This document shows, piece by piece, positions 25,564 through 45,241 of a DNA stretch of 64,000 nucleotides (the stretch's first letter is position 1; each line of letters opens with the position of its first letter). The position numbers and the translations under genes are program-made. The stretch lies in assembly GCA_964535215.1 (NCBI GenBank), contig CAZHST010000001.1, positions 82,621 through 146,620 on the forward strand, written 5' to 3'. The stretch comes from an uncultured bacterium (lineage in GTDB: Bacteria > Methylomirabilota > Methylomirabilia > Methylomirabilales > JACQHM01). Under the pieces are notes generated by a model. The model was given only the letters and a program-made list of their open reading frames with translations. It was not told the origin of the DNA and made no database searches.

Positions 25564-26253
25564 ATGGCCGAGGATGTCTTGGAGCTGATTGCGAACACTT
25601 CGGATGGTGTTTTCGCCGTTCGCAACGACCACCGGATCATCTTGTGGAATAAAGGGGCCGAAGCCCTGCTCGGGTTCCGGGCCAAGGAGGTTCTCGGGAG
25701 GTATTGCTATGACGTGCTCGGCGGCATTGATCAATCGCGCCACCCGATCTGTTACAAAGGTTGTCAAGCCCTGGTCGCAGCCGGCCGGGGGAAGCTGGTC
25801 CCCACCCGGAACCTGGCGACGCGAACGAAGATCGGGCAGGAGATCTGGTTGAACATGACCTCCATCGTGATTCCCTCCAAGCGAAATGATCTCGTGATCC
25901 TCGTCCACATCTTCCGGGACTTTACCCGCCAGAAGGAGGTGGAGCAGTTCGTTCACCGTCTCCTCTCCAGCGTGGCCAAGCCCTCCTGGTGTGAGGGGTT
26001 CGAGGCTCTGCCCAACCCGCCTCCTTCCCATGGTCTTCCCGAGGATCTGACCTCGCGGGAGGTACAGGTCCTCCAGCTTCTGGCATTAGGGACGCCGACC
26101 AAAGCCATCGCCCAGAGGCTTTGCATCAGTCCCTCGACCGTCAAGAACCATATCCAGAACATCCTCAGCAAGCTGAAGGTACACAGCCGGGTTCAAGCCG
26201 TTGCGGTAGCCTTCCGGTACAACCTTATTCAGGGGACCGATTTCGTAGCATAG
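25564..26253 (+). CDS. PAS-domain LuxR-family transcriptional regulator with a conserved Cys cluster (paralog A)
   Basis: ATG after GAAGGAGGA. PAS-like IANTSDGVFAV..RIILWN..AE.LLGF.A.EVLGR.CY.VLG; LuxR HTH LTSREVQVLQLLALGTPTKAIA. Paralog of 56511..57203. Confidence 0.8.
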   Translation: MAEDVLELIANTSDGVFAVRNDHRIILWNKGAEALLGFRAKEVLGRYCYDVLGGIDQSRHPICYKGCQALVAAGRGKLVPTRNLATRTKIGQEIWLNMTSIVIPSKRNDLVILVHIFRDFTRQKEVEQFVHRLLSSVAKPSWCEGFEALPNPPPSHGLPEDLTSREVQVLQLLALGTPTKAIAQRLCISPSTVKNHIQNILSKLKVHSRVQAVAVAFRYNLIQGTDFVA

Positions 26254-27785: not shown

Positions 27786-28514
27786 TCATCGCTTCCCAAC
27801 TTGATAGCGATGAATGGTGGCCAGGAGGTCCTTCACCCGTTGGGCGCTGGTGTTGCCGGTCCTCCCCCCATAGCAGACCGAGCCGCGGACGCCGATTAAG
27901 TCCGTCCCGATCTCGATCAGCGCCGGGATGTCCTCCTCGCTTAAGGAGCCCAAAAGAATGGTCTTCAGGTGGTAGAGGTGGGCCCGGCCGACGAACCGTT
28001 GGAGTTCTGGGGGGCTCATGTAGTTGAAGAGGTGGTGCTTGGTGTACCGTTGGACATCAACGGCCACGGCATCGATCTTGGAGCCCCGGAGTAGCTCGAG
28101 GGCATCCCAGGGGTTAATGGCCTCCAGCTCCTCGTAGTCGGCGTACACACCGACGGCCGTCAGCACCGCAGGGTAGCGTTTCTTAACCTCTTCCCCTAAA
28201 TCCTTGATGATCCTGGAAGCTTCCTCCTTCGAGGTCACCTTGTAGAGGCCGGCCGTGACATGATGGGTGGCCCCGGATTCGATGGCTCCTACCGCTGCCT
28301 GAGCGACCGTCCCCGCCATCCTCTCGTGGAAGTCGCCCAAAGCCGCTCCCACATTGATCCTCCTGGGAACGGCCTTCCGAACGTCCCGGATGATGCTGGG
28401 GAGATGAGCGCCCAGGGATCCTTCCTGCAGGTTTTTTACACTGATGAACTTCGCTCCCCCTTCAACAGCGGCCCTGGCATCCTCCTTAGACATGACGACG
28501 ATGACCGCTTCCAT
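27786..28514 (-). CDS. MfnB-like (5-formylfuran-3-yl)methyl phosphate synthase, UPF0264/DUF556 family
   Basis: ATG at 28514. EGGAKFISVKNLQEGSLGA...GTDLIGVRGSVC aligns by eye with methanogen MfnB (GGADIIDVKNP.EGSLGA ... GTDIVGVRGAAC). Confidence 0.65.
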   Translation of the reverse strand: MEAVIVVMSKEDARAAVEGGAKFISVKNLQEGSLGAHLPSIIRDVRKAVPRRINVGAALGDFHERMAGTVAQAAVGAIESGATHHVTAGLYKVTSKEEASRIIKDLGEEVKKRYPAVLTAVGVYADYEELEAINPWDALELLRGSKIDAVAVDVQRYTKHHLFNYMSPPELQRFVGRAHLYHLKTILLGSLSEEDIPALIEIGTDLIGVRGSVCYGGRTGNTSAQRVKDLLATIHRYQVGKR

Positions 28515-28597
28515 CCTTCCTTCTCTGGAACGTTCATCCCCCTCCCCCTTGCCCCCTCCCACCAGGGGGAGGAGGGGACTTTGGAGGGTGCCTCCTG

Positions 28598-28975
28598 TCA
28601 ATGGTCCACGAGAAGCTCGATGGACTCCACCCCCCGGCCACCCAGGAGACCGGAGACCGTGCCGCAGGAGGGGCACTCGGCGTAGGGCGTCGGATCGTGG
28701 CCGTCCGCCTGGCCCTCCTGGCCGGGTCCGTTGTACCCGCACATCGGGCAGTGCAAGGTGGCCGGGACAAGGACAAGGTTCAAAAGGGAGTTCTCGAGGA
28801 TCGTCCCTTTGACCAGGAGTTCGTAGGCCTGCCGGAGGGAGGCCTCCGAGTGGGCATCCAAGGCCCCCACCTTGAGGAGGACCTCCTTGACAGACCCCGC
28901 GGAGCGAATTCCCTGCTTATCGAGGTGGTCGAGGATGGCCTCGATCACCCGCTCCATCAGCGAGTATTCGTGCAT
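28598..28975 (-). CDS. hypA: Hydrogenase nickel-insertion protein HypA
   Basis: N-terminal MHEYSL (Ni-binding MHE motif). Zinc site CPMCG...CPSCG with a long spacer. Confidence 0.85.
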   Translation of the reverse strand: MHEYSLMERVIEAILDHLDKQGIRSAGSVKEVLLKVGALDAHSEASLRQAYELLVKGTILENSLLNLVLVPATLHCPMCGYNGPGQEGQADGHDPTPYAECPSCGTVSGLLGGRGVESIELLVDH

Positions 28976-29454
28976 AGGCCTTTGCCCCTCCAATCTTCTA
29001 ACACCTGCCGGGCCCTTTCGACGAACCTCGGGAGGGCTTCCTCCACCGATGGACTCAATCCCTCCCGGAACTCAAAGGGGTTCTCCACTTCCAGGGCCAG
29101 GATGCGGATCTCTTTCGGAAGGGCCATGTCCAACCGTTGGGCCATCTGGAGGGCCTCCGGGAGGCCGGCGTAGTGGGGGGAGGGGGCCAGGATCTTCTGA
29201 AAATCCTCCGGCAAAAACTCCAGCACGGTCCCGGGAGGACAGCCCCCGGTCATGACGGCATCCAGCAGAAGGGCCCGTTCGTAACCCTCCAGGAGCTCCA
29301 GAAGCGCCAGTCCGGCCTCGGAGGACTCCACGATCTCGACATCTCCCTGGAACTCTTTCTTCAAGATCCGGGCCGCGGCAAGACCGGCCCCATCGTCTCC
29401 CAGGATGTCGTTCCCCAGGGCCAGGAGGAGGATCCGCCGGCTGGAGACCCTCAT
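28957..29454 (-). CDS. [NiFe]-hydrogenase maturation endopeptidase
   Basis: ILLLALGNDILGDDGAGL motif. Located directly downstream of the large subunit. Confidence 0.85.
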   Translation of the reverse strand: MRVSSRRILLLALGNDILGDDGAGLAAARILKKEFQGDVEIVESSEAGLALLELLEGYERALLLDAVMTGGCPPGTVLEFLPEDFQKILAPSPHYAGLPEALQMAQRLDMALPKEIRILALEVENPFEFREGLSPSVEEALPRFVERARQVLEDWRGKGLCTNTR

Positions 29455-30974
29455 CTCCTGATCTCCCGGATGACCTGACCGGAGGAATCGCGGAGCCGGA
29501 CGATCAGGGGCATCTGGCCGGGCAGGGTGTGGGTGGCGCAGGCGTGGCAGGGATCGTACGCCCGGAAGGCCATCTCCACCCTGTTCAGCAGGCCCTCGGC
29601 GACCTCCCCATGATGGATCAGCCCTCTAGCGGCTTTCTCGACACTCATGGCGATCCGGGCCGAGTTGTTTTGCGTGGCCACGATGAGGTTGGCTTTTCGG
29701 ATGAGACCGTTCTCGTCGGTTTCGTAGTGGTGAAAGAGGGTCCCCCGGGGCGCCTCGACTACACCGATGCCCGTCGTGGGGGTGGTTGTTGGGATGACCC
29801 TCAGGTCCTTGCTGGTGATTTCAGGGTCGTGGAGGAGTTCCTTCATCCTCTCGGCGGCGTAGACCATCTCGACCACCCTGGCCCAGTGGTTGGCCAGGGT
29901 GTGGTGGACCGGCTTCCCGCCAAGGGTCGTGAAGAACTCCTCGTAGGCCTCCTGGGCTTGGGGCGTGGCCATCCCATCGGCGACGTTCAAGCGGGCTAAG
30001 GGGGCCACGGAGTAGATCCCGCTCCCGGGGCCCTCGGTAAACCCGTTCCATCCTACAGGCTTGAGATAGCAGAACTTCACATAACTCCACGGCTCCACAT
30101 GCTCAGCTATGTAGTCCAGGTATTGTTGCGCAGGGAACCGGGCAAATTCTTGCCCGTTGGGATCCACCACGCGGATCTTCCCATCGTAGAAGTTCACCCG
30201 GTTGTTCTCATCCACCAGGCCCATGTAGTAGGTTCGATGGGTGTAGGTGTCCGAGGTGATGAGGTTCACGTAGTCTGCATTGCTGAGGACAAGATCCTTG
30301 AAGACCTGGAGGGTGAAGAGGGCGAAGTCCAGGCCGTCCTTAGCCAGTTCTTGAAATTTGGGAAGGTCTTCGGCAGCAATCCCTTTAGCCACCCCTCCGG
30401 GGAGCCCCAGGACCGGGTGGATCACCTTCCCGCCGATGGAGGCGATCAACTCCCGGAGCCGGCGGCGCATAGAAATAACTTTCTTGCCGATATCCAACCC
30501 TACCTTCTGAATCACCCCAACAACATTTCGCATCTCCGGAGGGGCATCCGGCCCGACGATAAAATCAGGACCACCAAGGATATACACATGGAGGGCATGA
30601 TCCTCCAGCATGAAGGTGTTATAGACGAGTTCTCGAATCTTTCTGGCGGGAGAAGGCGGCTCGACCCGGTATAAATCATCCAGGGCTTTCGTAGACGCCA
30701 TATGATGGGCCGTGGGGCAAACGCCGCAGATCCGGCTGGTGATCTGAGGCATATCCTCGGCCGGGCGCCCGCGGCTGAACACCTCAAACCCGCGAAGTTC
30801 CGGCACCTGAAAGTAGGCCCGCTCCACCTCTCCTTGCTCGTCCAGGAAGATGTCAATCTTCCCGTGGCCTTCCAGCCGGGTGATGGGGTCAATGGTGATC
30901 CTTCGCCTCTCTCGATAGGCTTCATTCGCCCGTTGCTGCGCTTCATTCCACACGTGTTGAAGGGGTTCTTTCAT
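29451..30974 (-). CDS. mvhA: Cytoplasmic [NiFe]-hydrogenase large subunit, Mvh/group 3c-like
   Basis: L1 motif RICGVCPTAHH; C-terminal L2 motif DPCHACATH (Cys, not Sec). RLEGHGKI near the N-terminus. Confidence 0.9.
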   Translation of the reverse strand: MKEPLQHVWNEAQQRANEAYRERRRITIDPITRLEGHGKIDIFLDEQGEVERAYFQVPELRGFEVFSRGRPAEDMPQITSRICGVCPTAHHMASTKALDDLYRVEPPSPARKIRELVYNTFMLEDHALHVYILGGPDFIVGPDAPPEMRNVVGVIQKVGLDIGKKVISMRRRLRELIASIGGKVIHPVLGLPGGVAKGIAAEDLPKFQELAKDGLDFALFTLQVFKDLVLSNADYVNLITSDTYTHRTYYMGLVDENNRVNFYDGKIRVVDPNGQEFARFPAQQYLDYIAEHVEPWSYVKFCYLKPVGWNGFTEGPGSGIYSVAPLARLNVADGMATPQAQEAYEEFFTTLGGKPVHHTLANHWARVVEMVYAAERMKELLHDPEITSKDLRVIPTTTPTTGIGVVEAPRGTLFHHYETDENGLIRKANLIVATQNNSARIAMSVEKAARGLIHHGEVAEGLLNRVEMAFRAYDPCHACATHTLPGQMPLIVRLRDSSGQVIREIRR

Positions 30975-30995
30975 GACGCTCTCCCTCTTAAAGGA

Positions 30996-31970
30996 TCATC
31001 GCGGGGTCTTCACGTTTCCCCGGAGCAGGGCCTTGGCCAGCCCGTACCGGTAAAACGTGCCGACCGGGTCAGGGATGCCGGAGAGAATCTTCTCGATCTC
31101 TGCCCCTTCCTTGGCGTTGACAGAAGACGCGAGGGAAGAGAGGATCTTGGCGCCCTGATCCTTGACGCGGGAGGTGGGTCCAAAACAGCCGGTGCACGGC
31201 ATGTTACCTTTGATGCACAGGGCCTCACAGCCGCCTCGTGTGGCAGGCCCCATACACACAATCCCCTGGGCCAGGAAACACGTTTCCGGGTCAACCTTGG
31301 TCCAGTGGGGGCGTTTGAACTCGGTGAAGTTCAGGTCTGTAGGTTTTGTCTCCTTTCGGGGACACTCATCGCAGAGGGCGATGTCCGGTGCGAGGACGGC
31401 TCCCTTCGGGGGCAGATTCCCGGACAGAAGGGTCAGCACCGCTTGCTTCAGCAGCCTGGGCGTGGGGGGGCACCCGGGGAGATAATAATCCACATCCACC
31501 ACCTGGTCAAGGGATCGGACGACCTGCCGGAATTGGGGGAGGGTGGTGACGCGGCCGTTGTCCTCATACTTCGGTGCGGGACGGGTCCTTTGCTCGTTCA
31601 CCACCGTAGGGGCTTCCTCATAGACATCCTTCAGAATCTGTTCCCGGTCAAACTGGTTGGCCAGGCTGGGGATGCCCCCTAAGTGGGCACAGGCACCGTA
31701 GGCGATGAGGATTTGGCTTTTCCGGCGTAGCAGCCGGGCCATCTCCTCCTGCTCCGACGTCCGGATCGCCCCGTTGATCATCGTCGCCAGAATCGAACCA
31801 TCGGGCATCGCCTCCACATCCTCCTTTTTGAAATCCATGGCCACCGGCCAGAAGACAATGTCCACGGCGTCCACGACCGTGAGGATGTCTTCGGCCAGGT
31901 CCACGATGGACTCCTCGCACCCGCCGCAGGACGCACACCAGTAAAAGGCCACCTTGGGTTTCTCAGGCAT
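30996..31970 (-). CDS. mvhG: [NiFe]-hydrogenase small subunit, Mvh/group 3c-like, no Tat signal
   Basis: N-terminal FYWCASCGGCEES proximal-cluster motif. No signal peptide. Confidence 0.9.
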   Translation of the reverse strand: MPEKPKVAFYWCASCGGCEESIVDLAEDILTVVDAVDIVFWPVAMDFKKEDVEAMPDGSILATMINGAIRTSEQEEMARLLRRKSQILIAYGACAHLGGIPSLANQFDREQILKDVYEEAPTVVNEQRTRPAPKYEDNGRVTTLPQFRQVVRSLDQVVDVDYYLPGCPPTPRLLKQAVLTLLSGNLPPKGAVLAPDIALCDECPRKETKPTDLNFTEFKRPHWTKVDPETCFLAQGIVCMGPATRGGCEALCIKGNMPCTGCFGPTSRVKDQGAKILSSLASSVNAKEGAEIEKILSGIPDPVGTFYRYGLAKALLRGNVKTPR

Positions 31971-32466
31971 GGGTCACGACCTCCTCTGCCTCCGGGGTTT
32001 CCAGCTCCCGGTCCCACTCTTTGAAGCGGTCAGGCAACCTCAAAGGGCCCAGGGCCCACACCTTTTCGACCATGTCGTTGATCACCCATCTGACCTTTTC
32101 GCCCTCGGAGGCGGAGATCCACTCCAGGCGGAACCGGTCCTCTTCAACCCCCATGTCTTTCAATACCCGCTTCAGGAGGTGGAACCGCCGCAGGGTCTTG
32201 TAATTCCCTTCGATATAATGACAGTCCCCGGGATGGCATCCGCCGATCAGGACGCCGTCGGCCCCTTTGGCAAAGGCGTCCAGAACAAATTGAGGGTCAA
32301 TTCGTCCGGAGCACATCACCCGGATGATCCGGGCATGGGGGGCGTATTTCATCCGGGAGACCCCGGCCAGATCCGCGGCGGTATAGGTGCACCAGTTGCA
32401 GAAGAAGGCCACGATCCGGGGTTCCCACCCTCCCCTTGCGACATTCTTGTCCGGTTCTTTCTCCAT
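31963..32466 (-). CDS. mvhD: Methyl-viologen-reducing hydrogenase delta subunit MvhD
   Basis: Family signature FFCNWC...VMCSGR...GADGVLIGGCHPGDCHY. Confidence 0.9.
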   Translation of the reverse strand: MEKEPDKNVARGGWEPRIVAFFCNWCTYTAADLAGVSRMKYAPHARIIRVMCSGRIDPQFVLDAFAKGADGVLIGGCHPGDCHYIEGNYKTLRRFHLLKRVLKDMGVEEDRFRLEWISASEGEKVRWVINDMVEKVWALGPLRLPDRFKEWDRELETPEAEEVVTHA

Positions 32467-32499
32467 GATCCTGCCTCCTTTGGCGTGAGCCTTCAGCTT

Positions 32500-34506
32500 T
32501 TACACACCGGCCAGCACCCCTTCAATCTCGCTGAAGATCTCTTCGTCCTCAAAGAGGTTCTGCCTGATCGAGCCGGACGGGCAGGCGGCCACGCACACCC
32601 CGCAGCCCTTACAGAGGGCCTCATTGATCCAGGCCTTCTTTTTCGCCTCCCCAAAGGAGATGGCCGTGTAGGGGCAGAGGGGGATGCACGATTTGCAGCC
32701 GGAGCAGTCCTCTTCCACGATGTATGCGGTGTTGGGTTCCAGTTCCACAGAACCACTGTCAATGAGGGCAAGGGCCTCGGCGGCGGCAGCCCCCGCCTGC
32801 GCCACTGTATCGGGGATGTCCTTGGGACCCTGGCAGGCCCCGGCCAGGAAGATGCCGTCGGTGAAGGTGTTCACCGGCGCCAGCTTCGGGTGCCGCTCCA
32901 GGAAGAAGCCCTCGGTGGAGCAGGTGATGTTGAACAGACGGCGGACTTCCTGGGCATCCGTCCGTGGCTCCAATCCCACCGACAGCACCACCATGTCCAC
33001 GGGGATCTTCCGCACCCTCCCCAGCAGGGTGTCCTCCGCCTGGACGATCAGACGACCCTTGCCATCCGAGTCAGGATAGACATCCGCCACCTTGCCCCGG
33101 ATGAAATGCACCCCCTCCTCGGCCACCCGGTTGTAAAACTCCTCGAAGGCCTTGCCCGGGGCCCGGATGTCAATGTAGAAGTTGTAGACCTCGGCCCCGG
33201 TCTTCTCCTTGATGAGGTGCGCCAGCTTCAGCGAGTACATGCAGCAGACGCGGGAGCAGTACCGGTTGGTGTTCTCGTCGCGGCTGCCCACACAGTGGAT
33301 AATGGCCACCGCCCTTGGCCTCTCGCCGTTTCGCAGGACAACTTCACCACCCGTGGGTCCCGCCGCATTGATCAGGCGTTCCACCTCCAGGGCCGTGTAC
33401 ACGTTCGGGTAGGTCCCATACCCGTAGTAGGGGATGCGCCTGGCTTGAAAGACCTGGAACCCGGTGGCAATGATGATGGCGCCGACCTCTATCGTTTCGA
33501 TCCGTTCCCGCTGCTGGAAATCGATGGCGTTCCGCTCCCCGCAGACTTCCACACAGGTCTTCTTGCACTTCCCGCTCTTGAACTCGATGCAGGTCTCCGG
33601 GTCAATGACCACCACCTGCGGCACGGCCTGGGGGAAGGGGATGTACACGGGCTTCCGCTTGCCCAATCCCAGGTTGAACTCGTCGGGGAAACGGGCGTCC
33701 TTGTACACGCAGGCCTCGATGCACTCCAGACAGCCCACGCAGGCGTCTTCCAGGACATAGCGGGGCTTCCGCTTGACCGTCACCTTGAAGTTGCCGACGT
33801 ACCCTTCGACCTGAACGACTTCGGAGTAGGTCCAGAGGGTGATATTCGGGTGCGCCTTCACCGCCGTCATCTTCGGCGTCAGGATACAGGCGGCGCAGTC
33901 CAGGGTGGGGAAGGTCTTGTCGAACTTGGCCATGTGCCCCCCGATGGTCGGCTCCCGCTCCACCAGGTAGACGTGCTTCCCCGCGTTGGCGAGGGTGAGG
34001 GCCGCATGGATGCCGGCAATCCCCCCGCCCACCACCAGCACGTCCGGCTTGATGGGCACCCGTTTCCGTTCCAGCGGCTGATGCAGGGCGACACGGCGCA
34101 CGGCGGCGCGGATGAGATCCTTCGCTTTCTCCGTGGCCGCCTGCCCGTCCTCGTGCACCCACGAATCGTGCTCCCGGATGTTCACCATGTGAAAGTGGAA
34201 GGGGTTCAGCCCACCCTGCATGGTGGCATTGCGGAAGGTGGGCTCGTGCAAGAGGGGTGAACAGGCCGCCACGACGGTCCGGGTCAGGTTGTGTTCACGG
34301 ATGTCCTGCTTGATTAGCTCCTGTCCGGGGTCGGAGCACATGTACTTGTAGTCTCTGGCGACCACCACCCCGGGCAGGGTCGCGGCGTATTCTGTCAGGG
34401 CTGGTACGTCTACCGTGCCGGCGATGTTGGTGCCGCAGTGGCAGATGTAGACCCCGATGCGCACAGCGCCGTGGCCGTTGTCCTTCGGTTCCGCCATGGG
34501 AATCAC
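32500..34506 (-). CDS. hdrA: Heterodisulfide reductase subunit A (HdrA) flavoprotein
   Basis: 668 aa. FAD motif VVGGGIAGIHAAL and several CxxCxxCxxxCP ferredoxin motifs. No in-frame UGA. Confidence 0.9.
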   Translation of the reverse strand: MIPMAEPKDNGHGAVRIGVYICHCGTNIAGTVDVPALTEYAATLPGVVVARDYKYMCSDPGQELIKQDIREHNLTRTVVAACSPLLHEPTFRNATMQGGLNPFHFHMVNIREHDSWVHEDGQAATEKAKDLIRAAVRRVALHQPLERKRVPIKPDVLVVGGGIAGIHAALTLANAGKHVYLVEREPTIGGHMAKFDKTFPTLDCAACILTPKMTAVKAHPNITLWTYSEVVQVEGYVGNFKVTVKRKPRYVLEDACVGCLECIEACVYKDARFPDEFNLGLGKRKPVYIPFPQAVPQVVVIDPETCIEFKSGKCKKTCVEVCGERNAIDFQQRERIETIEVGAIIIATGFQVFQARRIPYYGYGTYPNVYTALEVERLINAAGPTGGEVVLRNGERPRAVAIIHCVGSRDENTNRYCSRVCCMYSLKLAHLIKEKTGAEVYNFYIDIRAPGKAFEEFYNRVAEEGVHFIRGKVADVYPDSDGKGRLIVQAEDTLLGRVRKIPVDMVVLSVGLEPRTDAQEVRRLFNITCSTEGFFLERHPKLAPVNTFTDGIFLAGACQGPKDIPDTVAQAGAAAAEALALIDSGSVELEPNTAYIVEEDCSGCKSCIPLCPYTAISFGEAKKKAWINEALCKGCGVCVAACPSGSIRQNLFEDEEIFSEIEGVLAGV

Positions 34507-36632: not shown

Positions 36633-37618
36633 CAGGTTTCTCCTCCCCCTTTCATTGCCTTCACTTTTTCAAGAAGAGGCGGCACGATATCAAACAGATC
36701 GGCGGTCACGCCAACCTGGGCAATGTTGAAAATTGGAGCGGCAGGATCGGTGTTGACGGCGATGATCAACTCAGCGTTCCTTATGCCTTCCTGATGCTCG
36801 GGAGCCCCGCTAATCCCCAGCGCAAGGTACAGCTTTGGCTTGACCTGCTTCCCCGACTTCCCGACCTGCCGTGAGAGGGGCAGCCACCCCTGGTCAATCA
36901 CCGGCCGGGAGCCGCACACGGCCCCACCCAGGGCCTTTGCCAGCTCCTCGGCCAGGGCCAGGTTCTCCTGACGCTGGATCCCGCGTCCCACCGCCACCAG
37001 GATGTCCTGCTGGGTGATGTCCACGTCACCCGCCTCCGGCTCGATGTACCGTTTGAACCGTACCCTGGAGGTCTCAGGCAAGGAGACGGTGACCTCTTCA
37101 AGAGGGGGCGTCTGCTCCTCCTCCCTTTTACCCGGAGGCCTGGCCCCGGGCAGGATGCCGAGAATTGTTGGTTCCCCCGGGGCAGCGGCCGTGACCTCTA
37201 TCTTGCCACCATACATGACGCACCGGGCCTGAAGTCTCCCCTCCACGACCCACACATCCTGGCAAAAGTTGAGAAAGGGGGCCTGCAGTTGGGCCGGGAG
37301 CAGCGTGGCCACATCCAGTGACACGTTGGTGAGCGGGACCAGGAGACTCCCCGGCCGTTTCTCTTTGATCAGGTGTGCCAGCGCCTGGGCGTAGGGTTCC
37401 GGTGCCGGCTCGGCCAGCAGGGGATGGTCCGCGTAGAGCACGGCGTCCGCTTTCCCCAGATGGTACGCTAGGTCTTTCACCTTGTGGCCGAGGAGCACCG
37501 CCTGGAGGGGGACCTCCAGTTGATCGGCTAACTCCCGACCAAGGGTTAACAGCTCATACGTCACCTCGGAGAGCTGTCCTCTCCACTGCTCTGCCAGCAC
37601 CCAGATGTTTCCCGCCAT
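36632..37618 (-). CDS. etfA: Electron transfer flavoprotein alpha subunit
   Basis: ATG at 37618. C-terminal FAD-binding signature LYLALGISGAPEHQEGI..AELIIAVNTD..API. Confidence 0.85.
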   Translation of the reverse strand: MAGNIWVLAEQWRGQLSEVTYELLTLGRELADQLEVPLQAVLLGHKVKDLAYHLGKADAVLYADHPLLAEPAPEPYAQALAHLIKEKRPGSLLVPLTNVSLDVATLLPAQLQAPFLNFCQDVWVVEGRLQARCVMYGGKIEVTAAAPGEPTILGILPGARPPGKREEEQTPPLEEVTVSLPETSRVRFKRYIEPEAGDVDITQQDILVAVGRGIQRQENLALAEELAKALGGAVCGSRPVIDQGWLPLSRQVGKSGKQVKPKLYLALGISGAPEHQEGIRNAELIIAVNTDPAAPIFNIAQVGVTADLFDIVPPLLEKVKAMKGGGET

Positions 37619-37631
37619 GCTGATCACCCTC

Positions 37632-38417
37632 CTAGAGCAGCCCACGGGCGACAAGGATTTCGCAGACCTTGCCGGCGATCTCTTCAGGGGATCCCGCCAG
37701 CATCTCCGCGCGCCCGGCCACCTCCGGCTTCGCCATCCGAAGGACCTGGACCGGGGCCAGCCCACCGTTCGCCATGGTGGGGGCGGGCACGGCTTCAATC
37801 CGTTGGGACTTCATCGCCGCCCGCACCTTCGCCACCGGCACATAACGGGGAGGCTTCTCCGCCGCCTGGATGCCCAGAATGGCCGGGAGGGAGATTTCAA
37901 ACTCGCCCCGCACCCCGCCCGGAAACTCCTTGAGCAGGATGGCCCGGCTCCCGGCCATGTCCACCTCCACCTGGGTCACCAGTCCTAGGTACGGGAGTTT
38001 CAACCAACTGGCGAGGAGAGGAGCGACCATCCCGTCCAGATCATCAATGGCTTGGCAGCCGGTCAGGATCAGGTCAGCCGGTAACAGGTTGGGGATGGTG
38101 GGAAGGAGCTGGGCGAGGAGGGAGGCAACCGTGTGGGTACTCGGCCCCACCCCATCGCCGGAGATCTTGATCGCCCGGTCTGCCCCTTTGGCCAGCGCGG
38201 TGAAGAGCACGTCGTCAATTTCGGGGGCGTCCAGCGCCACAGCGGTCACCGTCCCCCCGTAGCGCTCCTTCAACAGCAAGGCCTCCTCCAGGGCGTGCTC
38301 GTCCCGCTCGCTCAAGATCATCCGGAGGAACGACGGATCCAGCGATCGGCCATCAGGCGCGACGGCCAGCTCCTCCACCACATCGGGCACCATTTTCAAA
38401 AGAACCAGCATGTTCAT
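37632..38417 (-). CDS. etfB: Electron transfer flavoprotein beta subunit
   Basis: ATG at 38417. MNMLVLLKMVPD...LSERDEHALEEAL...LILTGCQAIDDLDG is typical of EtfB. Confidence 0.85.
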   Translation of the reverse strand: MNMLVLLKMVPDVVEELAVAPDGRSLDPSFLRMILSERDEHALEEALLLKERYGGTVTAVALDAPEIDDVLFTALAKGADRAIKISGDGVGPSTHTVASLLAQLLPTIPNLLPADLILTGCQAIDDLDGMVAPLLASWLKLPYLGLVTQVEVDMAGSRAILLKEFPGGVRGEFEISLPAILGIQAAEKPPRYVPVAKVRAAMKSQRIEAVPAPTMANGGLAPVQVLRMAKPEVAGRAEMLAGSPEEIAGKVCEILVARGLL

Positions 38418-38449
38418 GGCATCCCTCGTCCCTATCCTCCGCAATCCCT

Positions 38450-39655
38450 TTAACCCTCTATGGCCTCTGCTACCAGTTCCACCACATCCCTGACCACCAT
38501 CCGTTTGTCGTAGCCCAACACCTTCAGGGCATCTTCGAACCGGGAGACCTCGTAGGGGCAGGAGACGGCGAGGACATCGGCGCCGGTGGCCACCGCTTCC
38601 CTGACCCGTCGTTCGGAGAGCCTCTCGTGCCCCTTGGCCTTGTAGTACGTGTCCAGCCACATCCCGCCGCCCCCCCCGCCGCAGCAGATCGAGTTGAGGC
38701 GGTTGTGGGTCATCTCCACCAGTTTGACGCCGGGGATGGCTTGAAGGAGCCTCCGGGGTTCTTCGTAGAACCCGTTGTGCCGACCCAGGGCGCAGGAGTC
38801 GTGGTACGTCACCGTGGAGTTCAGCCTCCTGGTGAGCAGGGGTTTCAGCCGGTCCAGGTAGCGGGCAAAAAATGTCGTGGTGTGCTCGACCTCGTAGGCG
38901 AACCCAACGGCAGGGTATTGATGCTTGAAGGCATCGTAGGCGTGGGCGCCGGAGGTGACGATGCGGTTGAACCGGTACTTCCGGAAGATCGCCATGTTGG
39001 AGTCCATCAGGGTGTCAAACAGCCCGGTTTCCCCCAGCAGGCGGGCACACTCCCCGGCGCACCTCTCCTCGGGACCCAGGATGGCGAAGTCAAGGCCCAG
39101 GGCATGGAAGAGTTTGGCGGTGGCGCGGCTGTTGTCCTGGCCCCGGGGATGAAAGGAGGGGTAACACTCCACGAACCACAGCACGTCCGTCGGTCTGGGG
39201 TCCTCCGCCAGGATGCGGACGGGTACCTCGGCACTCTTCACCCACGCCGCCCGCTTCCGTGGCGATTCCCCCATCGGGTTGCCGTAGCGGAGGGTGTTCT
39301 CCAGGGCCTTTTGCAGCTCCCCCGGCACCTCGGGGAGACGGGCGAAGGTTTGCTCTTTTACCAGCGGCAGCAGCACCTCGGTGAGCCGAATCCCCCGGGG
39401 GCACTTCGCCATGCACGCATAACAGGTCACGCAGTTCAGCAGGCTGTCGCTTTCGAAGACCTCCTCCAGCATCCCGGCCCGGAGCATCCCGATGATTCTC
39501 CGGGGCGGATACTCCATCACCTCCCCGTAGGGGCAGGTGCCCGCACACACCCCGCACTGGATGCAGGTCAGGACCTTCCGTCCTTCGGGAAACTCGTGAA
39601 GGTTTTCCAGGGTCAGCTCACGGATCGCGTTCAGGGTGGCTGCTGCCTCTCCCAT
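38450..39655 (-). CDS. HdrD-like cytoplasmic FeS protein (2x[4Fe-4S] plus two CCG domains)
   Basis: ATG after AAGGAGAGG. CIQCGVCAGTCP and CVTCYACMAKCP; CCG motif ICCGGGGG. Confidence 0.85.
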   Translation of the reverse strand: MGEAAATLNAIRELTLENLHEFPEGRKVLTCIQCGVCAGTCPYGEVMEYPPRRIIGMLRAGMLEEVFESDSLLNCVTCYACMAKCPRGIRLTEVLLPLVKEQTFARLPEVPGELQKALENTLRYGNPMGESPRKRAAWVKSAEVPVRILAEDPRPTDVLWFVECYPSFHPRGQDNSRATAKLFHALGLDFAILGPEERCAGECARLLGETGLFDTLMDSNMAIFRKYRFNRIVTSGAHAYDAFKHQYPAVGFAYEVEHTTTFFARYLDRLKPLLTRRLNSTVTYHDSCALGRHNGFYEEPRRLLQAIPGVKLVEMTHNRLNSICCGGGGGGMWLDTYYKAKGHERLSERRVREAVATGADVLAVSCPYEVSRFEDALKVLGYDKRMVVRDVVELVAEAIEG

Positions 39656-39695
39656 GGTTTTCCTCTCCTTGCCTCGCCGGTTCGGCGGCACCATG

Positions 39696-40934
39696 TCAAG
39701 AAGCCCCAGCGTGGGGCGTGCTTCCGGTTTCAGAGCCGTCGGTCCGTGACCTTCCTATGGGTTGTTCGCCCCAAAAATCCCGATGGTGAGCCACGAGAGT
39801 TGAGCCTGGCTTCAAGGACCATTCCTGGCCTGGGAAGACCGGGAGATGTTTCACCGCCAGCGAGAAGAGGGCAAAGCCCCCAGCCACCAGGGCCATGGTC
39901 ACGGCCACCTCGGAAAAGGAGGGGAAGTAGCCGGCCTTCAAGAAACCCTCCAGACCCGTCGTGCTCACGGTCAGCCGGTTTAGGACAAAGCCGAGGACGA
40001 CAAGGGTGGCGGAGAAGTAGAGGCCTAGAGGATCCTGCCTCACCCTCGGGATGGAGAGGAGGAGAACCGGGAGGAGAACCCCCCCGAGGACCTCCAGGAG
40101 GAAGAGGGAGCGCTCCTGGCCGGGGGTCGAGAGAAGGGCCAGGACGCCCCGGTCGGATAAGTCCTGGAACCGTAAGATCGCATAGATCACGAGGACGATG
40201 ACGATCGGCTTCGCCAGGTCCGAGAGGAGGGGAAGCTCCATCCTCGTTCCGAAGGCCCGGGCGCTCAACCGCGCCTCGATGATCACCATGCTGAGCCCGG
40301 CGGCGATGGCGGAGAGGAAGAAGAAGATGGGGAGCATCCTGGAGTACCAGAAGGGGTGGAGCTTCCCGGGGACGATGAGGTACAGGGAACCCAGCGATGA
40401 CTGGTGGAGGGTCGAGAGGAGGACCCCCAGGACGACCAGGGGGATGGTGATGGAGCGGATGAGCCTCCAAGGGGTCTTGAGCTTCAGCCGCTCGAAGACG
40501 ACGGGGCTGAACTCCAGGGCCAGGACCGTTGTATAGAGCATCACGCACCAAGCCACCTCGAACATGACCGAGTGAGGGTTCCACAGGACCAGGGGATGCC
40601 AGATCCGGTCCGGCCTCCCCAGGTCGAAGAGGAGGGCGACGATGACCAGGAGATAGCCCAAAAAGGCCGTCAGGATGGTGGGCCGGAGGATTGGCTCGAA
40701 GCGTTTGAGGTGAAAGAGGTAGACGGCGGCGGCGATAACGAACCCCCCTGCCGCCAGCCCGACGCCGCAGAGGACGTCGAAGCCGATCCAGAGGCCCCAG
40801 GGGGACCGGTCGCTTAGGTGCGTGGCGGCCCCCAATCCCCGGGTGTAACGGATGAAGGTGGCGTAGAGGCCCAGGGCCAGGAGGATGGAGAGGATTCCCT
40901 TCCAGAACGTGATCTTCGGGGCTCTGATCCTCAT
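39696..40934 (-). CDS. NrfD/HybB-family integral membrane quinone-interacting subunit
   Basis: 412 aa, about 10 TM helices. N-terminus WKGILSILLALGLYATFIRY..GLGAAT.LSD..PWGLWIGFDV is typical of HybB/NrfD. Confidence 0.8.
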   Translation of the reverse strand: MRIRAPKITFWKGILSILLALGLYATFIRYTRGLGAATHLSDRSPWGLWIGFDVLCGVGLAAGGFVIAAAVYLFHLKRFEPILRPTILTAFLGYLLVIVALLFDLGRPDRIWHPLVLWNPHSVMFEVAWCVMLYTTVLALEFSPVVFERLKLKTPWRLIRSITIPLVVLGVLLSTLHQSSLGSLYLIVPGKLHPFWYSRMLPIFFFLSAIAAGLSMVIIEARLSARAFGTRMELPLLSDLAKPIVIVLVIYAILRFQDLSDRGVLALLSTPGQERSLFLLEVLGGVLLPVLLLSIPRVRQDPLGLYFSATLVVLGFVLNRLTVSTTGLEGFLKAGYFPSFSEVAVTMALVAGGFALFSLAVKHLPVFPGQEWSLKPGSTLVAHHRDFWGEQPIGRSRTDGSETGSTPHAGAS

Positions 40935-41704
40935 CAGGACCCTCCTTCATCCTGATCCGGTGGGGTTTCTCCCCCCACCTGGCGAAGCTCCTCCAGCCTG
41001 ATCCGCCGGTTGGTGATCCACCAGATGCCGAAGAGGAAGACGCCTCCCAGGAGGATCGTGTTCGGGATCTTGGAGAGGACCTCCCAGGTGAGGGTTGGGA
41101 GCGGCTCCTTCCCCAGATCCCCCCTGAACCCCAGGTGCTCAAAGGGGAGACTGGCGAGGAACAGGACCGAGGTCCCTCCTGCCTCCTCCAGGCCGTAGAT
41201 ATGAGGGGTGTACCTTTCGGGGGAGGCCTGGATCCTCCGCTTCGCCTCCCGGATCAGCTCGTCCCGCTCGCCGAAGAGGGTCGCCCCCGTGGGGCAGGCC
41301 TCGGCGCAGGCCGTCGGCCTCCCTTCCAGAACCCGGTCGGCGCACATGTCGCACTTCATCACCCGGGGGAAGAGCGTGTCCCATTCGTACCTCGGCACCT
41401 GGAAGGGGCAGGCCAGCATGCAGTACCGGCAGCCGATGCAGCGATCCTTCTCGTACACGACGGGCCCCATTGCGGTCTTCCGGAAGGCGCCGACGGGGCA
41501 GACGGAGGCGCAGGTCGGGGTCTCGCAGTGCATGCAGAGCCTCCGGACATGCACCCCGTGTTCCTCGCGGACGATGGTCAAGGTCCTGGCCGAGAGGTCC
41601 TGCTCCACTTCCCCGGGGAGGCGGTTCTTTTCTTTGCAGGCGAGGGTGCAGGCCCCGCAGCCGATGCAAAGCGTCGTATCAATCAGGAGGGCTTTTCTTC
41701 CCAT
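40934..41704 (-). CDS. 4x[4Fe-4S] ferredoxin subunit (HybA/HmcB/DsrO-like) with a C-terminal TM anchor and no Tat signal
   Basis: ATG at 41704 after GGAGGA. The first cluster motif, CIGCGACTLAC, begins at residue 12. CMHCETPTCASVCP and CIGCRYCMLACP. C-terminal helix ILLGGVFLFGIWWI. Confidence 0.85.
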   Translation of the reverse strand: MGRKALLIDTTLCIGCGACTLACKEKNRLPGEVEQDLSARTLTIVREEHGVHVRRLCMHCETPTCASVCPVGAFRKTAMGPVVYEKDRCIGCRYCMLACPFQVPRYEWDTLFPRVMKCDMCADRVLEGRPTACAEACPTGATLFGERDELIREAKRRIQASPERYTPHIYGLEEAGGTSVLFLASLPFEHLGFRGDLGKEPLPTLTWEVLSKIPNTILLGGVFLFGIWWITNRRIRLEELRQVGGETPPDQDEGGS

Positions 41705-42414
41705 CCCATCCTCCGAGGGGTCCTGACCAGGGCGAGAAACGCCTCCTGGAACCATTGCCAGGCGTCGTCGTCCATCTTCTCTAAGAGCCCCTCCATCACC
41801 AACCCCCCGTCGGCGGCGGTGGCCCCGAGGATCTCATCAGGGGCAAGGTGCCGCGCGACGAACTCGACAAACCGGCTGACTTCCCGTTCAAGCCACCGGG
41901 CGGCCTCCTCGGCAATGGCCAGGTCCTTGAGCTCCCGGGCAAGGGCCAGAGGTTTCATGACCACCACCCAGCCCTCCTGATACGGGTCTTTCTTCAAGGC
42001 CTCGGCATCCCCGATCAGGCGGGGATTCACCGCGGTGATGATCCCGCTCAAGGGGGCGGGGAAGGAGGCCCTCCGCTCCCCCTGATGGATGGCAAAAATC
42101 CTTTCCCCTTGCTCCCTCTTCTCACCCACCCTGGGGAGCTGGACGTGATCAATGCGGCCCAGGACCTTTGCGGCGAACGCGTCGGCCCCGACCTTCACCT
42201 CCCCTGAGGGGAGGAGATGAGCCCAGGTGTGACCCGGGTGGAAGAAGAGGCCCGAGGGAAGGGGAAGGGACTCGGCCCGGAGGCCGAAGGACCAGGGGGA
42301 AGGGATGGGGTTCTGGAGGTTTTCCTGAGGGGAGGGGAGGGGTCTAAAGCGTTCGGTGACAAGATCCAGGAGGACGAAGGCGATGATCAACGAGACGACG
42401 AAGATGGCGACCAT
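41683..42414 (-). CDS. Membrane-anchored GcvH-like protein, paralog 1 (no Lys at the lipoylation position)
   Basis: N-terminal TM helix, then a GcvH fold signature: FFHPGHTWAHL...VKVGADAFAAKVLG...PLSGIITAVN...DPYQEGWVVVM. By hand alignment, Glu/Arg replace the lipoyl Lys. Confidence 0.65.
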   Translation of the reverse strand: MVAIFVVSLIIAFVLLDLVTERFRPLPSPQENLQNPIPSPWSFGLRAESLPLPSGLFFHPGHTWAHLLPSGEVKVGADAFAAKVLGRIDHVQLPRVGEKREQGERIFAIHQGERRASFPAPLSGIITAVNPRLIGDAEALKKDPYQEGWVVVMKPLALARELKDLAIAEEAARWLEREVSRFVEFVARHLAPDEILGATAADGGLVMEGLLEKMDDDAWQWFQEAFLALVRTPRRMGWEEKPS

Positions 42415-42430
42415 GCTCCGCTCCTTCGAA

Positions 42431-42730
42431 TCAGATCCCCCGCTTCCCCTCCACGAGGCGGACCTTGACGTGCACAAGCCCCTTCCAGACCTTGGCGCCG
42501 AGGAGGCCGAGGAGGAAGAGGAGGGCGATCAGGGGAAAGAGGACGATGTAGAGCCCTCCGAGGAAGGGGCCCAGGAAAGGCATCAGGGCGGGAGGGATCG
42601 GCAGCCGGATGTAGAGGGATCGCTCTGTCCCCTCCAAGATCCCCCCTCCTTTCGGGACGGCCTGCGCCTCCCAGGTACCCTGCTCCAGGTAGAAGCCCTG
42701 GGGGGCCCACATCCCACCCCGATACCGCAT
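42431..42730 (-). CDS. Small membrane protein of unknown function (paralog of 47527..47838)
   Basis: ATG after GGGGAGGTG. MRYRGGMWAPQGFYLEQGTWEAQAVPKGGGIL, then a hydrophobic hairpin. About 40% identical by eye to the other copy. Confidence 0.55.
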   Translation of the reverse strand: MRYRGGMWAPQGFYLEQGTWEAQAVPKGGGILEGTERSLYIRLPIPPALMPFLGPFLGGLYIVLFPLIALLFLLGLLGAKVWKGLVHVKVRLVEGKRGI

Positions 42731-42745
42731 GGTGAACACCTCCCC

Positions 42746-43396
42746 TCAGGCGGTGTAGAAGAAGGCCCTGACGAGGGTCTCCCACTGCTCCTCGCTGAGC
42801 ATCGCGGGAGGTTTGGGGATCAGCTCCCCGCCGTCGGCTGCGGTCACCCCCAGCTCCCGGTGGAGGAACAGGGAGAGCCGGTCGGTCTCCCGCTCCAGCC
42901 ACGCTTTGGCGGCGGCGCCCGTCGGAAGCCTTGTGAACCGCCGATCGGGCACCTGGGCGGCGAAAAGCCACCCCTTCCCGTACGGGTCCCGCTCCAACGC
43001 CTCCCCATCTTCGGCTAAGGCCTCGTTCACGGCCGTGACCACCCCGTCCACCGGGGAGAGGAGCCTGGCCTGTTTTTTTCCGCAGTCAAGCCGGACGGCC
43101 GCCTCCCCCTCCAGGACCAGGGACCCCTCCGGAGGGAGACTCACCTTCCGGATGCCGTCTAAAAGCCTCCGGCCGAAGTCGTCGAGGCCGATCCGGACGG
43201 TCCCCTCTCCTTGGGGCATGACCCAGGTATGGCCCGGGTGATAGTACAGGCCGGGGTGGAGCCAGAACCCCCTCACCTCTTCAAGACCCATCCTCCAGTG
43301 CCGGACCCGCTCGTGACCCTTCTCCCCGAGCAGGAACAGGCCCCACAGCGTGAGGAGCAGGAGGCCTAAAAGGGCGAGGGTGCAGGCCAGGATCAT
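42746..43396 (-). CDS. Membrane-anchored GcvH-like protein, paralog 2 (Lys retained at the lipoylation position)
   Basis: N-terminal TM helix. YYHPGHTWVMP...VRIGLDDFGRRLLG...LDCGKKQARLLSPVDGVVTAVN...DPYGKGWLF. The first K lies 8 residues before P, as in ESVKAASDIYAP. Confidence 0.65.
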   Translation of the reverse strand: MILACTLALLGLLLLTLWGLFLLGEKGHERVRHWRMGLEEVRGFWLHPGLYYHPGHTWVMPQGEGTVRIGLDDFGRRLLDGIRKVSLPPEGSLVLEGEAAVRLDCGKKQARLLSPVDGVVTAVNEALAEDGEALERDPYGKGWLFAAQVPDRRFTRLPTGAAAKAWLERETDRLSLFLHRELGVTAADGGELIPKPPAMLSEEQWETLVRAFFYTA

Positions 43397-43614
43397 GTTC
43401 CTACCTCCTTCCGGGTCTCCCCCCTGATCGCCTCCGGCTCCCCGCCGGAGGCCGATGCCAGCCGGACGGTGATCTCCTTGAAGAAGGGGCACTCCCTGTA
43501 CCCCTCCCCCGTGCAGGGGCTTCTGGTGGTGATCTGGTGCTTGGGGACCAGCTTCCTCACCGGATAGGCCCGGCAGTAGACCATCACGATCTCTTCCAAA
43601 AAGGGGCACGGCAT
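43393..43614 (-). CDS. Small Cys-rich protein (73 aa) of unknown function
   Basis: ATG 43614 after GAGGAG. MPCPFLEEIVMVYCRAYP...SPCTGEGYRECPFF has four Cys residues in a metal-site-like arrangement. First gene after the sigma-54-like promoter. Confidence 0.5.
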   Translation of the reverse strand: MPCPFLEEIVMVYCRAYPVRKLVPKHQITTRSPCTGEGYRECPFFKEITVRLASASGGEPEAIRGETRKEVGT

Positions 43615-43659
43615 GGCTTCCCGCTCCTCTCCCATCGGTCCCACCAGGGCTTTGAATGA

Positions 43660-43674
43660 TCAATTGCCGTGCCA
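43660..43674 (-). promoter_or_regulatory. Sigma-54-like promoter (TGGCAC-N5-TTGA) for the hdr/mvh/etf operon
   Basis: The minus strand reads tTGGCACggcaaTTGAtc. The -24 element is perfect; the -12 element has GA instead of GC. It lies 46 nt upstream of ATG 43614. Confidence 0.5.
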
Positions 43675-43675
43675 A

Positions 43676-43721
43676 TCAAAAGCGAAAGGGGCCGCCTCCT
43701 CCCTTCGAAGAAGCGGCCTCT
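43676..43721 (-). terminator. Rho-independent terminator candidate after the NtrC-type regulator gene
   Basis: On the minus strand: AGAGGCCGC, a 17-nt loop, GCGGCCCCT (9 bp including one G-T pair), followed by TTCGCTTTTGATT. Confidence 0.45.

Positions 43722-43873: not shown

Positions 43874-45241
<1,368 letters not shown>

Follow-up and report, generated by a model that had tools for sequence, protein, structure and literature searches.

We analysed a run of 17 co-directional genes on the minus strand of contig CAZHST010000001.1 from an uncultured bacterium of the Methylomirabilota. The run occupies positions 27786-43614 of a 64 kb stretch, which is called the window below and to which all coordinates refer. 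In it, two modules that are conserved independently of each other adjoin end to end. Module B (39655-28957) contains genes for an HdrD-like protein, the electron-transfer flavoprotein (ETF) subunits EtfB and EtfA, an EMO/EtfD-like membrane protein, HdrA, and an [NiFe] hydrogenase of the MvhADG type with its maturation protease HycI. Module A (43614-39696, with its regulators at 43874-47417) encodes an iron-sulfur (FeS) protein, an NrfD-family protein and two proteins resembling the glycine cleavage H protein (GcvH-like 1 and 2). The junction between the modules, from the nrfD gene to the HdrD-like gene, is 40 nucleotides (nt) long. The best explanation, to which we assign a probability of about 0.55, is that the two conserved modules form an operon which is specific to the lineage and probably driven by sigma-54, and in which module B wires H2 to ferredoxin and menaquinone.

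The original prediction, made from the DNA sequence alone, had described a one-strand run of 17 genes with a largest gap of 83 nt, and this description is correct. All 17 open reading frames (ORFs) were recovered in place, and the intergenic distances range from -22 to +83 nt, the maximum lying between the HypA and MfnB-like genes. The G+C content of third codon positions is high and uniform in the chosen frames. The annotations were right as well, as Pfam domains agree with the names of the run genes; only the Cys-rich protein of 73 amino acids (aa) and the 99-aa transmembrane protein have no match, and both of these ORFs are also predicted by an independent gene caller in identical metagenome contigs. 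No terminator-like sites were observed in any intergenic gap of the run, and scans for sigma-70 promoters and terminators inside it gave nothing above chance. The 17 genes probably form one tight, co-transcribed unit in the present organism. Samples SRR11582147 and SRR11582170 also contain the locus.

The two parts of the run are conserved separately. The GcvH-like 1 and HdrD-like proteins were used as search queries, and all 20 window proteins were then mapped onto the loci found. The metagenome scan for module B was restricted to relatives at least 75% identical. The genome scan for module A used a single peptide pattern, FFH[PR]GHTW, and thus the distribution of this module given below is a lower bound. 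In nearly all of about 80 metagenomic loci and four others, the order of the module B genes is HdrD-like, EtfB, EtfA, EMO-like, HdrA, MvhD, MvhG, MvhA, HycI. Among the loci with enough sequence, strict colinearity is observed for EtfB in 62/63, EtfA in 52/53, EMO in 43/44, HdrA in 34/37, MvhD in 29/35 and MvhG in 27/33 cases. The HdrD-like gene is the first gene of the module; in three loci it lies between EMO and HdrA, directly before HdrA. There are more than 4300 homologues of the HdrD-like protein, the best 120 of which are 75-87% identical to it, and loci with module B are common in peat, sediment and soil metagenomes.

The genes upstream of module B vary between loci, and no GcvH, FeS or NrfD gene was found there in any of the 37 loci having at least 3 kb of upstream sequence. 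Looking from the other side, the HdrD-like gene does not stand next to FeS/NrfD in any of the 59 genome loci of module A. A homologue of Hdr, Etf or Mvh genes occurs near module A in two of these 59 loci, and in neither is it a B block directly downstream. The survey therefore splits the run, which had been taken for a single supercomplex or regulon. One part of the proposed merger is real, as the association of HdrA-MvhADG with EtfAB and an EMO-type protein is conserved; the module A part is conserved separately. The FeS/NrfD/HdrD trio named in the original prediction was a mis-parse, because the HdrD-like gene belongs to the Etf/Hdr/Mvh block, being followed by EtfB in nearly all loci. The interpretation of FeS/NrfD/HdrD as an Hmc-like unit was ruled out by the synteny and by a deletion in a close relative.

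This relative, locus L153 (JGI 3300003892, Ga0063012_10000172), is colinear with positions 28604-50000 of the window at 87-95% nucleotide identity. It lacks the region 42438-39622 with the genes for GcvH-like 1, FeS and NrfD, which is replaced by 165 nt; the MfnB-like gene is absent too. The genes for the kinase, peptidase, regulator, Cys-rich protein, GcvH-like 2 and small transmembrane protein are retained, as is all of module B. Within one lineage, part of module A seems to be subject to presence/absence polymorphism. As L153 keeps module B without FeS/NrfD, module B is independent of this pair. Another relative, L151, whose GcvH-like 1 is 86% identical, retains the NrfD-HdrD junction. The juxtaposition of the two modules is a feature of the present lineage. 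A 1355-aa "EMO-HdrA fusion" in L153 was considered as Rosetta-stone evidence and rejected as an artefact of an NN scaffold gap and a frame change.

All genes of the run and its regulators are on the minus strand, and those of module B are described here in the order of transcription. The HdrD-like protein (38450-39655) is a soluble protein of 401 aa with an HdrC-type domain for two [4Fe-4S] clusters and two CCG halves (Pfam Fer4, CCG). Its best match in PDB is EtfD 9OJN (E = 7e-47), followed by HdrC 5ODC_C (1e-15, N-terminal domain). The two CCG halves contain three and four Cys residues, that is, seven of the ten of an HdrB-type site: the first half reads C..CAGEC and the second C..CCG..C, and both CxxC pairs of HdrB-type sites are gone. 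EtfB (37632-38417, PF01012) is most similar in PDB to the beta subunit of the W3A1 ETF, 1O94_C. A check for signatures of bifurcating EtfAB had been suggested, and its outcome was negative: in a motif-level comparison, the beta-FAD motif of bifurcating (group 2) Etfs, GRQAIDGDTAQVG, is replaced in EtfB by GCQAIDDLDGMVA. Bifurcation, if any, would thus sit in HdrA. EtfA (36632-37618) has the ETF and ETF_alpha domains.

The EMO/EtfD-like membrane FeS protein (34503-36632, 709 aa) has an N-terminal membrane domain, a domain for two [4Fe-4S] clusters and CCG domains (Pfam). It also finds EtfD of Mycobacterium smegmatis (9OJN) as the best PDB match (E = 1e-63), with both the membrane and the soluble parts aligned. 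With regard to possible haem b ligands in the membrane domain, its match to Pfam Nitrate_red_gam (20.5 bits) is below the cut-off of 22.9 bits, and its His residues align with the EtfD helices. There are no Cys residues in the first CCG half and four canonical and one extra in the second, and hence at most one non-cubane cluster is expected. The HdrD-like and EMO-like proteins are each other's closest paralogues in the window (E = 6e-79). Judging from these similarities, both CCG proteins are EtfD/EMO-type paralogues with reduced Cys sets. No other CCG-domain, HdrB-like or HdrC-like ORF was found in the whole 64 kb window, so the reported absence of hdrBC from the window stands.

HdrA (32500-34497, 665 aa) is of the full-length methanogen type and, by homology, would be the subunit of flavin-based bifurcation. 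Its alignment with the crystallised bifurcating enzyme 5ODC_A (E = 4e-225) covers residues 5-650 of 654, and the best NCBIfam matches are HdrA2 and HdrA. It appears to be about as near to the solved bifurcating enzyme as bacterial homologues get. It is followed by genes for MvhD (31963-32466; PF02662, FlpD, E = 2e-54), the MvhG-type small subunit of [NiFe] hydrogenase (30996-31970; PF01058, Oxidored_q6) and the MvhA-type large subunit (29451-30974; PF00374, NiFeSe_Hases). The top NCBIfam matches of MvhD, MvhG and MvhA are VhuD, VhuG and VhuA respectively, with scores below the equivalog cut-offs. The nickel-site motifs RICGVCPTAHH and DPCHACATH are present in MvhA. The module ends with a maturation endopeptidase of the HycI/HybD type (28957-29454; PF01750, TIGR00072 above cut-off).

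The last two genes of the run have a different status. The nickel chaperone gene hypA (28598-28975, PF01155) is a variable accessory gene of module B; it also stands behind HycI in L153, and there are weak cases in L080 and L085. The MfnB-like gene (27786-28514; PF04476, 4HFCP_synth, the 4-HFC-P synthase family) is absent from all 84 loci of module B and from L153. It is outside the conserved cluster, of which it had been counted a member.

The proposed electron path through module B is as follows. MvhAG would oxidise H2, and MvhD would hand the electrons to the bifurcating FAD of HdrA. In the low-potential branch at HdrA, one electron would go uphill to ferredoxin. The high-potential electron would leave HdrA by way of the HdrD-like protein, the equivalent of sHdrB3, crossing its HdrC-like domain and its remaining non-cubane cluster to reach EtfAB, and from EtfAB it would pass through the EMO/EtfD-like membrane protein to menaquinone. 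The high-potential branch is placed here because HdrBC and the heterodisulfide are missing. Menaquinone, at about -74 mV, is a high-potential partner at least as good as the heterodisulfide. The reverse of this wiring, from reduced ETF and reduced ferredoxin to H2, would be equally compatible with the sequence. Gene content, homologies, the separate conservation of the modules and the enrichment of the promoter motif are direct observations; the subunit contacts, the direction of electron flow and co-transcription, like any mechanism beyond homology, are inferred here. In the EMO of Syntrophus aciditrophicus and the mycobacterial EtfD, non-cubane clusters that are out of reach of substrates carry ETF electrons to (methyl)menaquinone (bioRxiv 10.64898/2026.08.18.745454; PMC13083937; PMC8805022). 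Since both CCG proteins of the run are closest to EtfD/EMO, where the clusters take ETF electrons, no thiol carrier would be needed. The thiol/disulfide carrier postulated in the original prediction is therefore dispensable; the GcvH-like proteins, moreover, have no conserved lipoyl lysine.

Module B can be compared with several known systems. The MvhADG-HdrABC complex of hydrogenotrophic methanogens (H2:CoM-S-S-CoB, ferredoxin oxidoreductase; 5ODC) has in common with it full-length HdrA, MvhD, MvhG, MvhA and the maturation protease side by side, and the FAD domain and the N-terminal and inserted ferredoxin domains are all found in the present HdrA. However, that complex has HdrB, with ten Cys residues and two CCG motifs, and HdrC, both of which are missing from the present cluster and the window. 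Their place is taken by an HdrC/B fusion with reduced Cys, EtfAB and an EMO-type protein, and there is no heterodisulfide-forming metabolism; the window shows no methanogenesis genes.

Among published gene orders, that of the type II sHdr systems, shdrC1B1AH-B3-etfAB-emo (PMC11094781), comes closest; there, an HdrC/B fusion, etfAB and emo are directly beside a gene of the HdrA family. sHdrB3 was described as a fusion of HdrC and HdrB with a capacity for no more than one non-cubane cluster, and EtfAB-EMO was proposed as the electron exit to menaquinone (PMC11094781, citing Kümpel et al. 2024 for both proposals). The HdrD-like protein is likened to sHdrB3 on the strength of gene order and this published description. 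In contrast to type II sHdr, the present HdrA is of the long methanogen type rather than a short sHdrA, and sHdrB1, sHdrC1 and sHdrH are lacking, as are the lipoate-binding LbpA with its ligase and TusA/DsrE; a [NiFe] hydrogenase is attached instead.

The EtfAB-EMO/EtfD systems (S. aciditrophicus EMO, M. smegmatis EtfD 9OJN) are represented by the 709-aa protein, which aligns over both parts and is encoded directly after etfBA. The present EMO differs in having no Cys in its first CCG half, no acyl-CoA dehydrogenase gene is nearby in the window, and there is a second, soluble EtfD-like paralogue before etfB. Finally, the proposed scheme would be an H2-driven counterpart of EtfABCX/FixABCX, which transfer electrons from NADH to ferredoxin and quinone (PMC10734219); as in those systems, the electrons of a mid-potential donor would be divided between ferredoxin and menaquinone, with ETF in the chain. 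The bifurcating flavin would be in HdrA and not in EtfB, the donor would be H2 and not NADH, and the quinone reductase would be of the EMO type and not EtfX/FixCX. No published description of HdrA-MvhADG together with an sHdrB3-like adaptor, EtfAB and EMO was found in the literature searched, which omits most subscription journals. The same search, mostly without subscription journals, gave no description of a module of GcvH-like, FeS and NrfD proteins with its trio of regulators. Each protein family is known; as far as searched, the combinations appear to be undescribed.

For module A, relatives of GcvH-like 1 were found in 59 genome loci, all of them in metagenome-assembled genomes (MAGs) or single-amplified genomes, from at least 10 phyla including Methylomirabilota, Acidobacteriota, Bacteroidota, Ignavibacteria, Thermodesulfobacteriota, Proteobacteria and Fidelibacterota. 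The module A proteins of the window are closest to those of NC10/Methylomirabilota and Acidobacteriota MAGs. The FeS-NrfD pair is present alongside in 48/59 loci, and at least two GcvH-like genes in 40/59. The full trio of HAMP kinase, M54 peptidase and sigma-54 response regulator occurs in 29/59 loci, and many of the other loci are cut by contig ends.

The run starts with the 73-aa Cys-rich protein (43393-43614), which has no Pfam or NCBIfam match. It has four invariant Cys residues, C3, C14, C34 and C42, and shows the pattern CP[FH]..E..[FY]CRAYPVKKMVP in NC10 and Acidobacteriota loci. GcvH-like 2 (42746-43396, PF01597) consists of an N-terminal transmembrane helix and an H-protein domain. 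The next gene encodes the small transmembrane protein of 99 aa (42431-42730) with a C-terminal hydrophobic segment; it has no family match, is called as a gene on independent contigs as well, and belongs to module A in the present lineage. GcvH-like 1 (41683-42414, PF01597) again has an N-terminal transmembrane helix before the H-protein fold, which is followed by a conserved C-terminal extension ..TAADGGL..W..F..FL. Its family has 1229 representatives at E <= 1e-30. The AlphaFold2 model (pLDDT 84) superimposes on the Thermus H-protein 1ONL with a TM-score of 0.92 and a root-mean-square deviation of 1.7 A, and GcvH-like 1 is thus predicted to have the fold of the glycine cleavage H protein.

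Unlike that protein, the GcvH-like family does not have a conserved lipoyl lysine. At the lipoyl position, GcvH-like 1 has Glu, and G, N, E, D or S predominate there in its family. In GcvH-like 2 the residue is Lys, in the context CGKK, and members of its subclade have either K or R. Judging by these alignments, the lipoyl Lys (ESVKA context) is not conserved. A lipoylated GcvH-like protein was considered as the missing dithiol carrier by analogy with sHdr LbpA, and rejected, as the lipoyl-Lys column is not conserved and there are no lipoylation genes nearby.

The FeS protein (40934-41704) is of the HmcB/HybA type, with Fer4_11 and other 4Fe-4S dicluster domains and a C-terminal transmembrane helix; its best NCBIfam match is HmcB (247 bits, cut-off 420), followed by HybA. 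The NrfD-family protein (39696-40934, PF03916) has 10 predicted transmembrane helices and resembles HmcC and HybB, with 345 bits for HmcC, below the cut-off of 550 bits. Pairs of the HmcBC/HybAB/DsrOP type are the best named matches of the two proteins and share the C-terminal anchor and the 10 transmembrane helices. However, the scores are below the curated cut-offs, there is no signal peptide, and module A contains no cytochrome c or catalytic partner. It adds membrane-anchored H-protein-like subunits, the Cys-rich mini-protein and the kinase, peptidase and sigma-54 regulators. In the Acidobacteriota subtype (L053-L065), the gene order is cys, FeS, NrfD, GcvH, GcvH, and the FeS protein carries a Tat signal, SRRTFIKF. 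An inverted topology of NrfD was considered as an explanation of the signal-less FeS protein and found no support, the K/R bias being equal in the signal-less and Tat-type subtypes.

Several fusions involve GcvH-type domains. Two proteins of about 570 aa, P0304 and P0269, have a signal peptide, a periplasmic domain resembling periplasmic binding proteins (PBP-like), one transmembrane helix and then a GcvH1-type domain, which places the GcvH-type domain in the cytoplasm. In L004 and L005, a 378-aa fusion of a receiver domain to GCV_H (18745-19881 in L004) is encoded next to a second FeS-NrfD pair and a kinase. The PBP-type and receiver fusions suggest an adaptor or output role of the GcvH-type domain. 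A protein of 1391 aa, P0200, contains three non-lipoyl GcvH-like domains fused to an FAD-linked oxidase, Fer4 and two CCG domains. Our best guess is that module A is a redox-regulated quinone-linked module, in which the H-protein-like subunits serve as docking or signalling parts. It would comprise a quinone-interacting FeS/NrfD pair with membrane-anchored, non-lipoylated H-protein-like subunits.

The regulators upstream of module A were outside the run as originally delimited. They are a sensor histidine kinase with HAMP, HisKA and HATPase domains (45816-47417; Pfam), an NtrC-type sigma-54-dependent response regulator with Response_reg, Sigma54_activat and HTH_8 domains (43874-45241) and, between the genes for these two, a zinc peptidase of the archaemetzincin family (M54; 45248-45805, PF07998). 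The sensor region of the kinase contains one CxxCH haem-c motif (AESCYACHAAE), which is kept in 36/36 homologues beside module A. The peptidase scores 168 bits with NCBIfam NF033823 (cut-off 145), and the HExxHxxGxxH motif is present in 35/35 homologues. The sigma-54 response regulator adjoins module A in 35/59 genome loci. In L040, a Cytophagia MAG, ORFs similar to a [NiFe] hydrogenase large subunit and HycI (16517-18831) are situated between the kinase and the sigma-54 regulator, which is a second, independent link of module A regulators to hydrogenase.

Just upstream of the run, a terminator-like hairpin with a 12 base pair stem and a T-rich tail (43690-43718) follows the regulator gene. 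It is succeeded by a sigma-54 promoter-like element, TGGCACGGCAATTGAT (43659-43674), which lies 44 nt ahead of the run's first ATG. The element is of the GG-N10-GC type and agrees with the consensus in 11 of 12 positions, deviating at -12, with TTGA for TTGC. Motifs with at least 10/12 matches are enriched upstream of module A (36/58 loci, compared with 45/630 random windows). Upstream of the HdrD-like gene in loci with module B only, they occur at the background level (5/76). The 40-nt gap between nrfD and the HdrD-like gene contains no terminator, and no room for a promoter is evident. As module B starts 40 nt behind module A, it would be under the same control in the present lineage, being read from the sigma-54 promoter of module A. 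It is likely that the TGGCACGGCAATTGAT promoter is driven by the neighbouring kinase and NtrC-type activator; expression of module A would presumably be controlled by the haem-c kinase, this activator and the archaemetzincin.

A number of points weigh against the reading of the run as an operon of two modules with H2 wired to ferredoxin and menaquinone. In a minority of relatives of module B, gene calls place hdrC-hdrB beside hdrA (L150 and L068), and L102, L114 and L124 have ORFs that match HdrC/B only weakly; given these relatives, module B may have a classical disulfide branch. In the present genome, hdrBC may be encoded elsewhere, beyond the 64 kb window. The HdrD-like protein keeps seven of the ten Cys residues, and so some catalytic role of it is possible. 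No ETF-reducing enzyme was found near module B in the window. There may be an internal promoter before the HdrD-like gene. As for module A, the signs conflict as to which side of the membrane the FeS protein occupies: it has no signal peptide in the window and in most loci, yet its C-terminal anchor has a positive tail, and its counterpart in the Acidobacteriota subtype has the Tat signal. The hdrC-hdrB variants differ in further respects: some of these five loci have a second hdrA, and in L150 hdrC-hdrB stand after a three-gene two-component set inserted behind EMO.

The assumption that all 17 products make up one supercomplex, in which HdrA uses two HdrD-like disulfide reductases, a thiol/disulfide carrier and two quinone modules, now seems very improbable. 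It would account for the tight co-linearity and the short junction, which two or more related populations share. HmcB and HmcC are the nearest counterparts of the FeS and NrfD proteins, and an HdrD-like subunit is part of Hmc as well; besides, in one database protein (P0200) GcvH-like domains are joined with an FAD oxidase and a CCG domain. However, the modules are conserved apart, both in the B loci (0/37) and in the A loci (2/59). L153 keeps module B without FeS-NrfD-GcvH1, the HdrD-like gene travels with etfBA-emo and not with FeS/NrfD, and the CCG halves are short of Cys ligands, to the point that the first half of EMO has none. It is also quite unlikely that module B is a true disulfide reductase, with the HdrD-like protein replacing HdrBC and reducing a disulfide of a protein or cofactor (for example a DsrC-like protein or lipoylated GcvH-like 2), and with EtfAB-EMO separate and co-regulated. 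The usual partner of HdrA is indeed a CCG-domain disulfide reductase (5ODC family), lipoate-binding GcvH-like proteins serve sHdr systems (PMC11094781), and GcvH-like 2 has Lys at the lipoyl position, a subclade keeping CGK. On the other hand, the HdrD-like protein has lost both CxxC pairs, and the lipoyl column varies, with Glu in GcvH-like 1 and Arg in some relatives of GcvH-like 2. Genes for lipoate ligase, lipoyl synthase, DsrC and sulfur transferases (TusA/DsrE) are all missing from the window, and none of the 37 module B loci with enough upstream sequence has a GcvH-like gene there.

Another possibility concerns the direction of the same wiring. Electrons from reduced ETF, supplied by acyl-CoA or other flavoprotein dehydrogenases, and from reduced ferredoxin could be joined at HdrA to produce H2, with EMO as an alternative exit to quinone. 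Such confurcation would fit the occurrence of EtfAB-EMO in syntrophic fatty-acid oxidisers, whose bottleneck is the disposal of ETF electrons as H2 or formate (PMC8805022; bioRxiv 10.64898/2026.08.18.745454), as well as the abundance of the cluster in peat, sediment and soil. We consider it unlikely: there are no beta-oxidation genes, including those for acyl-CoA dehydrogenase, in the 64 kb window, and the many cytochromes and the bc-type complex encoded there suggest a respiratory lifestyle, in which H2 uptake would be useful. The sequence does not reveal the direction, however. For module A, the alternative to electron transfer is a signalling accessory, in which GcvH-like adaptor or output domains would report the state of FeS/NrfD and quinone, or a periplasmic ligand, to the kinase, regulator and peptidase. 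Some proteins do have a GcvH1-type domain as their C-terminal, cytoplasmic portion, behind a PBP-like domain in the periplasm and a single transmembrane helix, a receiver-GCV_H fusion exists, and the tie to the kinase, sigma-54 regulator and peptidase is conserved (29 loci with all three). But all other known FeS/NrfD pairs are electron-transfer modules, control of the operon may be the only task of the regulators, and no precedent is known for H-protein folds in signalling. We consider this role of module A rather unlikely. We retain the reading with two modules under a sigma-54 promoter. A more demanding joint claim, that module B carries out H2 bifurcation to ferredoxin and ETF/menaquinone without a heterodisulfide and that module A is a new sigma-54-controlled class of redox or signalling modules, is tentative and has less than even odds in our estimate.

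Genes for group 3c [NiFe] hydrogenases and HdrA are common in soil, peat and sediment bacteria that make no CoM-CoB heterodisulfide. If the proposed wiring is true, it would answer what Mvh-HdrA does in non-methanogenic bacteria: module B would be an uncharacterised, environmentally widespread system, in which a group 3c hydrogenase and HdrA are combined with a soluble EtfD-like adaptor. The nine-gene cluster offers a testable answer to the question of the high-potential acceptor, with quinone, reached via ETF, as the exergonic branch. It would add a new combination of donor and acceptors to flavin-based electron bifurcation, and it bears on the consumption or production of H2 in anoxic soils. 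Module A, in turn, would define a class built on non-lipoylated, membrane-anchored H-protein folds and an archaemetzincin; with a large family, of at least 1229 sequence clusters, and an unusual, strictly conserved set of regulators, it is important in its own right.

The remainder of the window contains further redox genes. Two stretches of the plus strand, 12710-15315 and 16073-22741, encode first a bc-type complex, made up of a Rieske protein, a cytochrome b fused with a cytochrome c domain and a dihaem cytochrome c, and then a second NrfC/NrfD pair along with several multihaem cytochromes c and two cytochrome b561-like proteins. The bc-type complex and the cytochromes point to a respiratory, possibly metal-reducing lifestyle. 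Directly beyond the run, a 482-aa ORF without Pfam match (26337-27785, plus strand) is convergent and ends 1 base before the MfnB-like stop codon; it is kept in L153, where it comes directly after HypA. On the other side, the plus-strand genes at 47992-52233, divergent from the kinase gene, encode a multihaem cytochrome of the NapC/NirT type, a 658-aa Fer4_5 membrane protein and a PCYCGC-motif protein, and L153 has the same genes beside its locus. Two PAS-LuxR (GerE) regulators with equal domain architecture are encoded on the plus strand on either side of the unit, at 25534-26253 and 56511-57203.

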